From positions 1 through 64,000 of the IMG/VR virus record IMGVR_UViG_3300042691_013609: a stretch of 64,000 nucleotides of DNA. The stretch is one strand, 5' to 3'. How positions within the stretch are numbered: the first letter of the stretch is position 1; every line of letters starts with the position of its first letter. The position numbers were made by a program, and so were the translations under genes. Below, one piece after another: positions 896 to 53,561 of this stretch. The DNA comes from a virus. The notes below the pieces were generated by a model. That model was given only the letters and a program-made list of their open reading frames with translations, did no database searches and was not told the DNA's origin.

Positions 896-1350
896 GATAT
901 TTATGTACAATAGCTTTTATTTTTTCATGTATCTTTTTAAGCGGCCAAAGTCTGCCGACATACAGTCAAAAAGATAGTACATTTACATTCTCCTTCCAAC
1001 AGTCTTTAAAGGTAGCTAAGAGATTAGAGTTTTCAGATAAACTACAAAGAGAAGTAGATATATTAAAAGAATCTTTAGGGCACCAAAGTTTAGCAATGCA
1101 AAAGTTAGAATTAAGGGATACTTTGATGCAGATGGAGTTAAAGAAGTCCTATGAAATAGAAAAGGTTCTAAATGATAGGCTTAGGGTATCGGATGAAATA
1201 ATTGGTAACTACAAGGCTTTAGTATTCTCAGCAGAAGAACAATTAAAGTCGGAACAAAAAAAGACAAAAGACCAAGAAATTTGGAAAAATGTCTACAAGT
1301 ATGGTTACCCAGCTTTAATAGGAGTAGTCACATTTTTTATTTTAAAATAG
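892..1350 (+). CDS. secreted coiled-coil protein with C-terminal TM, spanin-like partner
   Basis: Signal peptide ending FLSG|Q, coiled coil, C-terminal hydrophobic GYPALIGVVTFFIL. Confidence 0.45.
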   Translation: MRYLCTIAFIFSCIFLSGQSLPTYSQKDSTFTFSFQQSLKVAKRLEFSDKLQREVDILKESLGHQSLAMQKLELRDTLMQMELKKSYEIEKVLNDRLRVSDEIIGNYKALVFSAEEQLKSEQKKTKDQEIWKNVYKYGYPALIGVVTFFILK

Positions 1351-1351
1351 G

Positions 1352-2227
1352 ATGGAAGACCAAATAACATGTTGTAACGAAAAGAAAGTTGAATCTATTC
1401 ATACTTATAGGAGTATAGATGAGCTTACTTACAAAATTAAAAGTAGGTTATCCTACTTAGCTAATTTAAAAATTAGAAATTTATTTTATGGGTATCATCC
1501 AGAACACTATGTAGATGATGAAATAAATAAACTTTCTGTTTTAAAGGGTTCTTTAGACCGGGTTAAGAAAAGCTTCCTGCATATACAGAAGAGTTGCTTA
1601 GACGATGAGACAATTCAAAAGATTGTAGAGAAAGCCAACAAAATTGTCGGTAAGGAATCATGCCCTAAGAAAAGAGCAGATATAAAAATAGGCGAAGAGG
1701 ACTTAAATAGTTACCTATCAAAAGGTCCAAGATGTGTAAGTTATGACACATGGAATGAGTTCTCAAGATTTATCTGCGGAAGAATAGGGTTTACATTAAC
1801 TGCGGAAAGAGAGATATGCGATATAGCTTTTGAGATTTCCAGAAACATAATAAGTTGTAACCTACTTTACTCACTCTCTGTTTATAAAGAAATGTGCGAT
1901 TTAAAGTACAAAGTAAACAGAACTAAAGAAGAGTGTAAGATAGACTACAAACTTTTAATGGAAAAGAATCCAACATGTGATTTAGAGTTTAAGTCTTACT
2001 TGTCATATGTGCATAAGCACAATCTTTCATTCCCTATTATAGATGAAGTATATTCAAGCGGATTATCTTTATTAGAGCAGGACGGAGAAGTTTTCTTGTG
2101 CACCGCGCTAAATAATTACAACCTAATGAAGATTGCGCCTAATGATTTAGAAGAGCTCCTGAATTTAGGATTTGTCGTTGAATTAAACAAATTTGATATA
2201 ACGGCAGATTACAAAAAGTATATATAA
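1352..2227 (+). CDS. Cys-containing hypothetical structural-module protein
   Basis: 291-aa ORF, 1 nt after the previous stop. Confidence 0.7.
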   Translation: MEDQITCCNEKKVESIHTYRSIDELTYKIKSRLSYLANLKIRNLFYGYHPEHYVDDEINKLSVLKGSLDRVKKSFLHIQKSCLDDETIQKIVEKANKIVGKESCPKKRADIKIGEEDLNSYLSKGPRCVSYDTWNEFSRFICGRIGFTLTAEREICDIAFEISRNIISCNLLYSLSVYKEMCDLKYKVNRTKEECKIDYKLLMEKNPTCDLEFKSYLSYVHKHNLSFPIIDEVYSSGLSLLEQDGEVFLCTALNNYNLMKIAPNDLEELLNLGFVVELNKFDITADYKKYI

Positions 2228-51104: not shown

Positions 51105-51284
51105 TTAATAAGTTCCTCCGACAGTTCTTGGAAGACTTTTTACAACTTTTTGAACCTCTTCTGAATTCAATTTAATTGTAACCCCGTCTTTTGTTATAAA
51201 CATTTCTAAACCTTCAGCCCAGTGCGAATAAGATTTAGTTGAATTGTTACATGATGTTATTGTAAATACAGAAAATTCACTCAT
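51105..51284 (-). CDS. hypothetical protein (59 aa)
   Basis: MSEFSVFTITSC...VGGTY; ATGA overlap with the HNH stop. Confidence 0.65.
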   Translation of the reverse strand: MSEFSVFTITSCNNSTKSYSHWAEGLEMFITKDGVTIKLNSEEVQKVVKSLPRTVGGTY

Positions 51285-51769
51285 GATTTATTTAAAATTT
51301 TAAACCTAATTTGTGTGCCTCTTATTATTTTACTTTTCCAAGCAAAAGGGCCACTCGCGCCTTCTTCTTCATACATATATAAACTTGCTTCTTTAATAGA
51401 AGAAAATACCTTATTAGTTTGTGTATCTAAAACTTTTCTGCTACAGACCTCTTTTGATTTTTTAGTCATCTCAGCCAAATATTCTGAATCGTTTTTTATC
51501 CTGCCTTTATCTACGGCATCTTGCCAATTATCTTTGGCTGAACCTAAGAATAGATGATCCGGGTTAACACATTTTCTATTGTCACATGAGTGACATACAT
51601 ACATACCTTTAGGAATCTCTCCTTTATGTAGAGTATAAGAAAGCCTGTGGGCATCTAATACTTTTCCATCTACTTTGATAGCGCCATAACCTGTCTTACC
51701 TCTTAGACCGGCCGTCCATTCCCAACATCCGTCTTCTATCTTATTTATTTTACTATAAAACCTTTCCAT
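51281..51769 (-). CDS. HNH homing endonuclease
   Basis: CWEW.......GYG, AHRLSY, VCHSCDNRKCVNPDHL..G..KDN. Confidence 0.92.
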   Translation of the reverse strand: MERFYSKINKIEDGCWEWTAGLRGKTGYGAIKVDGKVLDAHRLSYTLHKGEIPKGMYVCHSCDNRKCVNPDHLFLGSAKDNWQDAVDKGRIKNDSEYLAEMTKKSKEVCSRKVLDTQTNKVFSSIKEASLYMYEEEGASGPFAWKSKIIRGTQIRFKILNKS

Positions 51770-51787
51770 TTATTTTACTTTTTTTAA

Positions 51788-51912
51788 AAAGATATGTGGT
51801 GTCGCTCCACTGCCTCTACAACCTAAGAATTTCGCTCAAAAGGGACTTCTAGAACTTATGTCCGTTTCGTACTAATCCGAATTGCTAACACCATTTTTGA
51901 ATGGATATCTTT
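51788..51912 (-). ncRNA. candidate structured RNA island B
   Basis: Ends pair (AAAGAUAU/AUAUCUUU; UGGUGUUAGC/GCGACACCA), enclosing an irregular hairpin. Confidence 0.4.
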
Positions 51913-51929
51913 GTATTAATTGTGGTCAC

Positions 51930-52121
51930 TCATAACCATTTTCCAAATCTAAAATTAGTAAACCCTATTCCAGATATATCTGGATCATTTTTATATATCT
52001 CTTCTAATTCTTTATAATACGGAGATTCTTTAGGTTCGCTAGTAGCCTCTGTTTTATACAGTATTTTTTCACATGGTTTATCTCTACGAAGATAATAAAA
52101 AATATATTCTCGTTTTGCCAT
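51930..52121 (-). CDS. hypothetical protein
   Basis: 63 aa with A-rich leader. Confidence 0.65.
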   Translation of the reverse strand: MAKREYIFYYLRRDKPCEKILYKTEATSEPKESPYYKELEEIYKNDPDISGIGFTNFRFGKWL

Positions 52122-52144
52122 TCTATTTTTTATTTTATTATTTT

Positions 52145-52482
52145 AAAAACCCGCAAGATACATGATGCGTCCATCAGTAGAGCTTGCAGGATACGTTACA
52201 ATTTATACCTTGGGCTATTCATTGTAACAAGAAGACCAGAGGGCAGTTCTTTGGGATGCTTCCTGGTACGTTATTAAAAAGCCAGGAAAGCGAGCGTGGA
52301 CACCACGCTCCTAAACTCTCCTAGCACGAAATTCTCCACTAAGTCTCGGTATACACAACATAGGAGAATTAGAAATAGGGAGCTACCCATCTTTCCTATA
52401 ACCGATCGCATCCTATAGAGGCTGGTAGTATTATTCCACCCAGAAGTTTAAAACTTCCTTTCATTGCACCTATAGCGAAACT
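52145..52482 (-). ncRNA. candidate ~335-nt multi-stem RNA (island C) directly 3' of the tRNA, ending in a terminator-like hairpin
   Basis: About eight local stems plus long-range pairings; G-U pairs favour the minus strand. Confidence 0.6.
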
Positions 52483-52485
52483 GGG

Positions 52486-52559
52486 TGGGCTAAATAGGGC
52501 TTGAACCTATGACCTACTGATTATGAGTCAGTTGCTCTAACCTACTGAGCTATTAGCCC
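52486..52559 (-). tRNA. tRNA with CAT anticodon (Ile2-like; Met not excluded)
   Basis: Acceptor GGGCTAA/TTAGCCC, D arm GCTC/GAGC, anticodon loop CTCATAA, T loop GGTTCAAG; 74 nt; no exact CCA after the discriminator. Confidence 0.95.
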
Positions 52560-52572
52560 TTAAAGATGATTA

Positions 52573-52580
52573 CAAATTTA
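52573..52580 (-). promoter_or_regulatory. Bacteroidota -7 box for the tRNA/ncRNA transcript
   Basis: TAAATTTG 13 nt upstream of the tRNA 5' end. Confidence 0.7.
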
Positions 52581-52620
52581 GTACATATTTTTATATTATA
52601 TTGTTAAATGATTGTTAAAT

Positions 52621-52650
52621 ATAGGGGGAGTTTTATTTTCCTCCCCCTAT
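52621..52650 (-). terminator. hairpin downstream of the primase operon
   Basis: Perfect 10-bp stem ATAGGGGGAG/CTCCCCCTAT; weak U tract. Confidence 0.6.
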
Positions 52651-52680
52651 CCGTGGCAGACACGTTATCAGAGGCGTATA

Positions 52681-53208
52681 TTATTGGAAGTTAAACTTCT
52701 CTTTGTTTGAATCATACCAAGTAAATAACCTACTATGCTGTAAATTTGGTTGGCTATACGCATTTTCGGGTTTAAAAAATAGGTAATCTAATCTTTTATT
52801 ATACACAGATTCCTCCGTTTCAAAGTAAGAAACAATTAGACTATATATCTCTTTATGGGTAAAAGATGTCTCCGCCCTAAACCAAGCGATAAGTTTTAAT
52901 AGTTTATTTTTTGGACATATTACTAATTCTTCTTCTTTGTATTTATCTAATAGGTAATCGGCAAGTTTCTCATCGTTCTCATGGTAATTAGGTATTTGTA
53001 TCTTGTCTAAGATTTCTTTTCCTTTTTTATTTAATCTTACTTCCCCGTTTTTCAGAGTCTGAGTGTAATCTGATAGATGCAGTATAGTAAAGTTATCAAC
53101 TATGTACTGGTTCAAATCCTCTGTACGATTTTGATGTATCGCTTGCAAAGCCACTATATCTGCTACAGATAGTTCTACTTTTTTCAAGTAGTTAAAATTT
53201 ATATACAT
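52681..53208 (-). CDS. hypothetical replication-region protein
   Basis: 175-aa ORF. Confidence 0.7.
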   Translation of the reverse strand: MYINFNYLKKVELSVADIVALQAIHQNRTEDLNQYIVDNFTILHLSDYTQTLKNGEVRLNKKGKEILDKIQIPNYHENDEKLADYLLDKYKEEELVICPKNKLLKLIAWFRAETSFTHKEIYSLIVSYFETEESVYNKRLDYLFFKPENAYSQPNLQHSRLFTWYDSNKEKFNFQ

Positions 53209-53561
53209 TGATCTGAATTTTCTATGTTATCTTCCTCCTCTTCTTTAAAGGATACTATGTTGTTGTATTTTATATAAGCTGTTTCCCACCTTGCTAAGTA
53301 AGCAGTTATTACTTTTGATTCGTTTTCTGATGTTTTAAAATTTTTAACCAGCCATTTTTGCATTACATAAACATTGCAATTTTGCTCTTTGTCATCAGTC
53401 TCTTCACAGCCTGGTATAAAAGATAGTAACTCACTATTTTTTAGTGGTTCTATTAATTCATAACCATCCCCGACATCATCTAAATAAAAGTTATTCCTTC
53501 TTTCATAAACAACCTGCCCAGGTTTTAACTTACTTTTTGTTAACTTCTTCAATTTTTTCAT
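53199..53561 (-). CDS. hypothetical protein
   Basis: 120 aa, ATGA-coupled to primase. Confidence 0.65.
   Translation of the reverse strand: MKKLKKLTKSKLKPGQVVYERRNNFYLDDVGDGYELIEPLKNSELLSFIPGCEETDDKEQNCNVYVMQKWLVKNFKTSENESKVITAYLARWETAYIKYNNIVSFKEEEEDNIENSDQCI

Follow-up and report, generated by a model that had tools for sequence, protein, structure and literature searches.

Stable RNAs encoded by phages next to transfer RNA (tRNA) genes have been known for decades. In bacteriophage T4, a 1.75-kb precursor contains the species I and II RNAs together with eight tRNAs, its transcription stops beyond the last of the RNA genes, and the tRNA cluster harbors the homing endonuclease gene segB in a region described as preferentially inherited (PMC2330249). 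Many GOLLD RNAs exceed 800 nt and are reported to combine a conserved 3' portion with a variable 5' portion (bioRxiv 10.1101/2024.12.08.627333); GOLLD and ROOL are encoded by phages and prophages, often near tRNAs, and the GOLLD representative env-38 is described downstream of a Met-tRNA. The crAss-like Cellulophaga phage phi14:2 is reported to produce abundant, persistent, early intergenic long non-coding RNAs at levels above those of most protein genes (bioRxiv 10.1101/2020.03.07.982082), and theta ribozymes, which resemble the hepatitis delta virus (HDV) ribozyme, have been described at the 3' ends of tRNAs without an encoded CCA, often tRNA-Met, in phages of Bacteroidota (PMC10879173). Here we analyze a 64,000-nt stretch of viral DNA (positions 1 to 64,000 of IMG/VR record IMGVR_UViG_3300042691_013609; hereafter, the window), in which the 339 nt (~340) at positions 52145-52483 of the minus strand, starting at the base directly after the end of a tRNA gene, probably constitute a phage gene for a stable, tRNA-linked and modular non-coding RNA.

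Judged by analogy, the candidate RNA is nearest in kind to the T4 species I and II RNAs: both cases involve small, stable, tRNA-linked phage RNAs with a homing endonuclease gene nearby (segB in T4, an HNH gene here). Unlike T4, however, the locus combines one tRNA with one modular ~340-nt RNA, belongs to a crAss-like lineage, and displays no sequence likeness to the T4 RNAs: a blastn search in distant mode of 50,697 phage records from GenBank produced 346 matches, all confined to query positions 30-123, that is, to the tRNA. Sequence likeness to phi14:2 is likewise undetectable by this search, and the RNAs of that phage are not presented as tRNA-linked in the account cited above. With GOLLD and ROOL, the candidate shares the phage origin and the tRNA proximity, and with GOLLD in particular, the pattern of conserved 3' and variable 5' portions, but it is only 340 nt long, matches no Rfam model, and multimers or cages are not among its evidence. 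It occupies the same place as theta ribozymes, behind a phage tRNA lacking an encoded CCA, but the theta fold was not found in it, and its length is presumably about five times that of a theta ribozyme.

Non-coding status and RNA-library evidence

An earlier note on this DNA, made from the sequence alone, had proposed a structured RNA in an ORF-free part (ORF, open reading frame) of a tightly packed genome, beginning right after the tRNA on the same strand. Both statements hold. Stop codons occur in all six frames of the stretch, where the longest sense ORF is 45 aa, and the ORF-free gap around it (51770-52680, 911 nt) is the longest in the 121-kb genome, the next one being 472 nt (ORFs of at least 70 aa considered); the candidate starts with the next base after 52484. 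The genome contains no second copy of it. The adjoining tRNA, with the anticodon CAU, is the only one that ARAGORN and Rfam identify within the 64-kb window; it lacks an encoded CCA, its gene ends in CCC, and both the elongator Met and the Ile2 types are possible.

Comparison with Rfam 15 using cmscan, a check that the earlier note had asked for, yielded no family that would remove the novelty, with only the tRNA reaching the gathering score. At E<=10, searches with 1051-nt and 351-nt queries recovered nothing on the minus strand inside the stretch, no GOLLD or ROOL and no riboswitch family. The reported lack of signatures of transfer-messenger RNA (tmRNA), RNase P and signal recognition particle (SRP) is borne out, since neither Rfam nor ARAGORN matched tmRNA, RNase P RNA, 6S RNA, SRP RNA, group I or II introns, or known self-cleaving ribozymes. 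An HDV-like or theta ribozyme was considered separately and rejected: there were no nested double-pseudoknot folds within 25 nt of the tRNA end, under a loose descriptor of our own that found at least one fold in 9.5% of 200 shuffled sequences, and no HDV-type match in Rfam. We found no description of this RNA in the literature on non-coding RNAs of crAss-like phages or on freshwater metatranscriptomes. The family is called new against Rfam 15; a catalogue of 10,006 candidate viral structured RNAs built from IMG/VR has been described (PMC10690425), and its models lie outside this comparison. With that scope, we consider it fairly likely that the stretch is a true gene for a stable phage RNA, whose family is new and absent from Rfam.

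The transcript check also came out in favor of the proposal. Of the 24 sequencing runs listed, 20 contain part of the 52100-52620 region, and 8 of these 20 are recorded as RNA; four of the RNA runs are tiny freshwater metatranscriptomes (18-37 million letters), in each of which about half of the sampled words are present. The runs containing the stretch carry labels such as lake water, wetland and freshwater, and those aligned in detail are from freshwater. Contigs were placed on 51200-53300 from three RNA runs of three different studies (X10, X16 and X18) and from one DNA run (X14). Each of the three RNA runs includes one contig that lies entirely inside the candidate at 100% identity: 274 nt at 52196-52469 in X10, a library of only 36 million letters; 172 nt at 52214-52385 in X16; and 210 nt at 52255-52464 in X18, all with 0 differences. 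None of the three RNA runs has any depth on the protein-coding flanks (51200-51767 and 52620-53300), but pieces of the DNA run X14 do fall there, with the deepest cover of that run on the tRNA and on hairpin H2 of the candidate (Table 1). This difference argues against DNA carry-over and for an RNA far exceeding the neighboring mRNAs in abundance or stability, so that a stable, abundant transcript from the stretch is likely. The remaining pieces in the RNA runs are tRNA-like fragments of other organisms, with 1-11 differences in 37-70 nt, and X18 additionally contains a 61-nt piece with 3 differences at 51777-51837.

The RNA contigs cover the 5' part of the candidate over 52282-52469, and those of X10 and X16 extend at least 68 letters to either side of the module boundary at 52281/52282, which implies that the 5' part and at least H1 and H2 are contained in one molecule or in overlapping ones. 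The uncovered parts, 52145-52195 and 52470-52483, say nothing of the ends of the RNA.

Table 1. Features of the tRNA-linked locus and its surroundings (window coordinates)
Feature	Position	Strand	Basis or remark
Candidate terminator hairpin of the upstream 175-aa gene, 10 bp	52621-52650	-	~30 nt past the stop codon; read from sequence
TAnnTTTG box, candidate promoter of the tRNA-RNA unit	52573-52580	-	13 nt upstream of the tRNA
tRNA, anticodon CAU (CAT in DNA)	52484-52559	-	ARAGORN; Rfam tRNA, 76.6 bits
5' part, ~200 nt	52282-52483	-	two domains predicted
5' domain I, three-way junction with two hairpins	~52408-52481	-	predicted fold
5' domain II, multi-branched, with 8-bp AAUUCUCC/GGAGAAUU and GAGCGUGG/CCACGCUC hairpins	~52270-52402	-	predicted fold
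Possible UCGGU/ACCGA pseudoknot	52401-52405 with 52346-52350	-	complementarity
3' module, 137 nt, two hairpins and a terminator	52145-52281	-	conserved in L002 and L014
Hairpin H1	52235-52267	-	RNAalifold
Hairpin H2	52195-52228	-	RNAalifold
Long terminator hairpin H3, 8-bp outer and 8-bp inner stem	52150-52190	-	RNAalifold
U5 run after H3	52145-52149	-	sequence
63-aa ORF	51930-52121	-	starts 23 nt past the U run; no Pfam family
Free-standing HNH homing-endonuclease-like gene	51281-51769	-	Pfam HNH_3, E 2.3e-12, zinc-binding loop; ~380 nt downstream of the RNA

Modules, fold and natural variants

The 175-aa gene upstream of the tRNA has 30 homologues (31-100% identity; 27 aligned) in a large protein collection, through which 15 loci were fetched, 13 from metagenomes, one from IMG/VR and one from a metagenome-assembled genome (MAG). 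Any part of the RNA is present in only three of the 15 (L004, L002 and L014); many of the others are short contigs, which give no evidence of absence. L004 matches the window at 100% identity throughout the tRNA and the 339 nt. In L002 and L014, the 3' module recurs (L002:4840-4977, 86% identity; L014:7741-7878, 82%), with the likeness starting ~8 nt before the stop codon of a 191-aa ORF, without the tRNA and without the 5' part, and the downstream genes differ from those of the window and from each other. The 5' ~200 nt were found only beside a tRNA, in L004 (100%) and in one contig of the DNA run X14 (~92% identity; record 9). A covariance model of the 3' module matches only the window, L004, L002 and L014, and nothing in the other 11 loci, in L016, or in the records behind L015 and L016. 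Because the 3' module has its own distribution in L002 and L014, the sequence comparison presents the candidate as a composite, rather than one evolutionary unit, consisting of a 3' module and a 5' part whose known occurrences are all with the tRNA. The single ornate unit of ~335 nt claimed in the earlier note thus does not survive, given that only its last 137 nt are common to L002 and L014. Exact-peptide scans of IMG/VR with the primase, the 175-aa neighbor and the 191-aa protein of L002 recovered no close relative, and DNA patterns derived from the RNA had no matches in viral contigs (four of four scans) or genome contigs, in collections that may omit the window's own genome.

The comparison of the window with L004 shows how sharply the conserved block is delimited. 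The L004 block that matches window positions 52685-52139 is 98.4% identical and reaches the contig end, whereas the upstream genes are only 64-72% identical. All 8 substitutions and the single indel that separate the two genomes fall in the 126 nt upstream of the tRNA, and none in the 421 nt of tRNA and RNA, a distribution for which our own arithmetic gives a chance of (126/547)^9 ~ 2e-6. There is no gap between the tRNA and the RNA, a hairpin and the TAnnTTTG box lie upstream, a hairpin with U5 lies downstream, and the whole block moves as one piece. By analogy with T4, a cassette at 100% identity in an otherwise 64-72% identical phage could result from gene conversion and the preferential inheritance it brings, with the HNH gene as a possible driver of the conversion.

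The full-length candidate folds at -108.9 kcal/mol, compared with -90.4 +/- 5.2 for 100 shuffled sequences (z -3.54; 0 of 100 as good), so that the earlier expectation of better-than-shuffled folding is confirmed; the 5' 214 nt (z -3.30; 0 of 200 as good) and the 3' 125 nt (z -3.09; 1 of 200) behave similarly. All complementary pairs that had been listed from the sequence are indeed present in it, and most appear in either the minimum free energy (MFE) fold or a modular fold, in which the 5' part and the 3' module are folded apart: the GAAGUU/AACUUC hairpin, AAUUCUCC/GGAGAAUU, GAGCGUGG/CCACGCUC, GUUACAAU/AUUGUAAC, and CCUGCAAG/CUUGCGGG followed by U5. However, UUCCUGG/CCAGGAA has a probability of only 0.02, being beaten by CUAGGAGAG/CUUUCCUGG at 0.98, and AUAGG/CCUAU is used in a different register. 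The proposed long-range GGAUGC/GCAUCC closure reaches a pair probability of 0.88 in the full-length ensemble, but neither it nor UUCCUGG/CCAGGAA can be conserved in L002 and L014, where the 5' partners are lacking. Hairpin H1, in turn, is conserved and has a probability of only 0.05 in the window's own full-length ensemble. The modular fold (-107.3 kcal/mol) is 1.6 kcal/mol dearer than the MFE fold; the pattern of conservation across loci favors it over the integrated fold, and we consider a single integrated 335-nt fold doubtful.

RNAalifold analysis of the three 3'-module sequences predicts H1, H2 and H3 with 37 pairs in total, two of which are compensatory, both in H3 (G-C to U-A and C-G to A-U). 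Three further changes in the module are one-sided, to or from wobble pairs, and retain the pairing only in the minus-strand RNA. Overall, 99.1% of the alignment cells are paired, compared with 27-42% when the partners are slid by 1-3 columns. The claim that the RNA ends in a hairpin followed by U5 stands: H3 with its U run has the form of an intrinsic (Rho-independent) terminator, whose structure is kept in L002 and L014 with two compensatory changes and one wobble change. A simple terminator scan did not call H3, because its stem is long and bulged.

The contigs of the DNA run X14 provide variants from the same type of environment. The 322-nt contig (record 9), which spans 52211-52529 with 21 differences and 5 gaps, alone offers an independent view of the 5' part. 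A second contig, of 119 nt, spans 52231-52322. A third, of 824 nt, matches the window at 99% identity over 51870-52227 and ceases to resemble it past 51870, the mark of a mosaic joint at this point. Over the H2 region (52194-52264), the summed depth is 343, compared with ~32 on the flanks, at least 8 contigs overlap H2, and four contigs share one variant at 52230, indicating that many co-occurring genomes carry the 3' module. When the 17 listed X14 substitutions are mapped onto the MFE fold, pairing survives all 8 transitions that hit paired positions, 5 substitutions break a pair and 4 fall on unpaired bases; among those that break pairs, two are at the top of one hairpin, and two come from a contig whose likeness stops nearby. 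In the modular fold, 2 of the 17 become unpaired, at RNA position 8 (pair kept in the MFE fold) and RNA position 43 (pair broken there). This pattern is only suggestive of support for the fold.

Proposed mechanism and alternative explanations

The layout of the locus suggests how the RNA might be made. The tRNA(CAU) and the RNA would be transcribed together from a promoter just upstream of the tRNA, where the TAnnTTTG box resembles what we take to be the -7 promoter box of Bacteroidota; the only L004 change within the box hits an 'n' position. The hairpin between the 175-aa gene and this box is probably, as read from its sequence, the terminator of that gene, which would make the tRNA-RNA unit a separate transcript. 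A simple terminator scan did not call this hairpin, and a scan for sigma-70-type promoters and terminators gave no useful result. In tRNAs where CCA is not encoded, maturation involves RNase Z or RNase E cleavage; because this tRNA lacks an encoded CCA, a cleavage of this type would be the likely step that cuts the 5' end of the RNA free during 3'-end maturation of the tRNA. The 3' end would be set by the H3-U5 terminator (52145-52190), which might also protect the RNA, and the 3' module alone is used by other freshwater phages directly behind a protein gene. The RNA would accumulate far above the phage's neighboring mRNAs and, we infer, would most likely act in trans during infection, as a protein-binding RNA or a decoy.

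Several observations weigh against this reading. The opposite strand also folds well below shuffled sequences (z -4.35), so the case for the minus strand rests on the tRNA, the U run and the G-U pairs, and not on the z-score. The RNA contigs end 15-20 nt short of the tRNA and exclude the phage tRNA, and contigs cannot show the strand, ends or level of an RNA. The covariation that the earlier note had called for is found in the two compensatory pairs of H3, but 47 of 500 column shuffles of the three sequences reach the observed level, which is not significant. Variation in the 5' part is known solely as differences from one ~92% identical contig. The five of 17 X14 variants that break MFE pairs are all transversions, and the mapping uses a fold of the reference sequence, in which about half of the transitions would keep pairs by chance. 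TAnnTTTG is not enriched in the window (98 matches, compared with 85.6 +/- 8.9 expected), and hence a single match is weak evidence of a promoter. Finally, the 100% identity between the window and L004 could reflect recent recombination rather than selection.

If there is no dedicated RNA gene, the stretch might be a structured tRNA trailer joined to a shared terminator or 3'-untranslated region (UTR) module, with hairpins that slow exonucleases, so that a by-product piles up without acting in trans. This would fit the location of the module in L002 and L014, directly after a stop codon like an ordinary 3' UTR with a terminator, the restriction of the only statistically visible covariation to the terminator stem, and the inability of contigs to properly rank abundance. 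We nevertheless regard it as unlikely, considering that 421 nt are unchanged next to 126 nt with nine changes, that H1 and H2 keep 82-86% identity although the genes around them are unrelated, more than a terminator would need, that the excess X14 depth over H2 (343 vs ~32) points to many genomes keeping this region, and that a 200-nt by-product would be a burden on so tightly packed a genome. A cis-acting leader or attenuator, in which the mutually exclusive helices CUAGGAGAG/CUUUCCUGG, UUCCUGG/CCAGGAA and ACCAGG/UCUGGU set the read-through of H3 into the 63-aa and HNH genes, could draw on the three overlapping alternative pairings around RNA positions 160-250 and on a terminator that precedes the next start codon by 23 nt. 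H3 takes no part in the alternative helices, however, the downstream genes differ in the window, L002 and L014 while the module is kept, the three RNA runs offer no contig cover downstream of 52196 save the 61-nt X18 piece, and no riboswitch family was matched, which together leave this explanation quite improbable.

Conservation of the stretch as DNA, for instance, as a recombination or homing target or as protein-binding palindromes that are incidentally transcribed, would account for the opposite strand folding equally far below shuffles and for the cassette being a mosaic block beside an HNH endonuclease gene. What makes it very improbable is that the H2 and H3 substitutions produce G-U pairs in the minus-strand RNA alone and destroy the symmetry of a DNA palindrome, that the 8 paired transitions all likewise keep their pairs via G-U in the minus-strand RNA, and that the contigs of the RNA libraries are confined to the stretch. 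We deem it equally far-fetched that the stretch serves as mRNA for a small peptide of 45 aa (52277-52411, minus strand), such as a membrane-active toxin or a holin-like protein. The peptide appears hydrophobic by eye, the frame stays open over 58 codons and shares its conserved terminal UUU-stop-UAA with the 191-aa ORF of L002 and L014. But neither a homologue nor an identical called gene exists among 5.8 billion proteins, and both X14 relatives carry single-base indels inside the frame (three in record 9 and one in record 10), which together argue against a peptide gene; furthermore, the substitutions track pairing rather than codon position, and the frame is absent from L002 and L014. The idea that the stretch descends by decay from the 191-aa gene seen in L002 and L014 was considered as well and rejected, as tblastn found no match in the stretch, the best hits (E 0.46-0.49) being elsewhere in the window. 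Weighing these alternatives together, we continue to favor a phage gene for a stable, tRNA-linked, modular RNA.

Phage context and implications

The IMG/VR record from which the window takes the first 64 kb comprises 121,238 bases, with a CheckV completeness of 80. The primase matches only crAss-like phages (70 records, all below 60% identity; 23-29% among the matches listed) and the window contains a 4,934-aa ORF; on these grounds, the phage is a distant, environmental crAss-like phage, whose host probably belongs to the Bacteroidota of freshwater.

The surroundings of the cassette vary considerably between loci. Between the 63-aa ORF and the HNH gene of the window lies a second ORF-free stretch (51770-51929, minus strand), which folds no better than shuffles (z -0.69); contigs of the DNA run X14 are ~83-85% identical across 51787-51898. 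In L004, two inserted ORFs separate the 175-aa gene from the cassette, one of 65 aa and one of 458 aa (L004:4230-5606, plus strand); the latter by eye resembles DNA cytosine methyltransferases and is absent from this position in the window. L002:3225-4847 and L014:6099-7748 share nearly identical genes of 71/80, 69, 210 and 191 aa, of which the 210-aa one is HNH-like by eye, and the 175-aa homologues of these two loci are only 64% and 37% identical to that of the window, which amounts to strong mosaicism around the module. In L012, positions 1181-1443 (plus strand; 263 nt), ~320 nt downstream of the 175-aa homologue, contain no sense ORF longer than 48 aa, and an opposite-strand 147-aa ORF (1152-1595) overlaps them. 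This segment folds at -94.6 kcal/mol (z -4.49; 0 of 200 shuffles as good) and contains a T-arm-like sequence by eye; ARAGORN and Rfam called nothing there, and it may be another RNA in the same slot. L016, a 59.6-kb contig in a MAG labelled Anaerolineae that is probably a mis-binned phage contig, encodes a 175-aa homologue with 51% identity, and the 16.5 kb of it that were examined contain neither a tRNA nor the RNA module.

A bolder proposal is that the cassette represents a new class of modular trans-acting phage RNAs, in which a 3' platform widely shared among co-occurring freshwater phage genotypes would be combined with exchangeable 5' effector domains. The whole cassette would be spread among 64-72% identical phages by HNH-driven gene conversion, and its RNA would act for the phage as a sponge or decoy for a host factor, such as a defense that targets tRNAs or senses RNA. 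We put this forward as a speculation with a low chance of being right as a whole.

To our knowledge, none of the T4 species I and II RNAs, GOLLD, ROOL and the phi14:2 RNAs has an assigned function. The candidate RNA described here is small enough for structure probing and cryo-electron microscopy, is visibly expressed in environmental metatranscriptomes of several studies, and exists in natural versions with and without the 5' domain, which amount to a ready-made module dissection. The locus also illustrates that reading such a sequence as one ornate RNA can conceal separately evolving modules. If the link to the homing endonuclease is true, this would be the second case, after SegB of T4, of selfish nucleases spreading a tRNA/RNA cassette.

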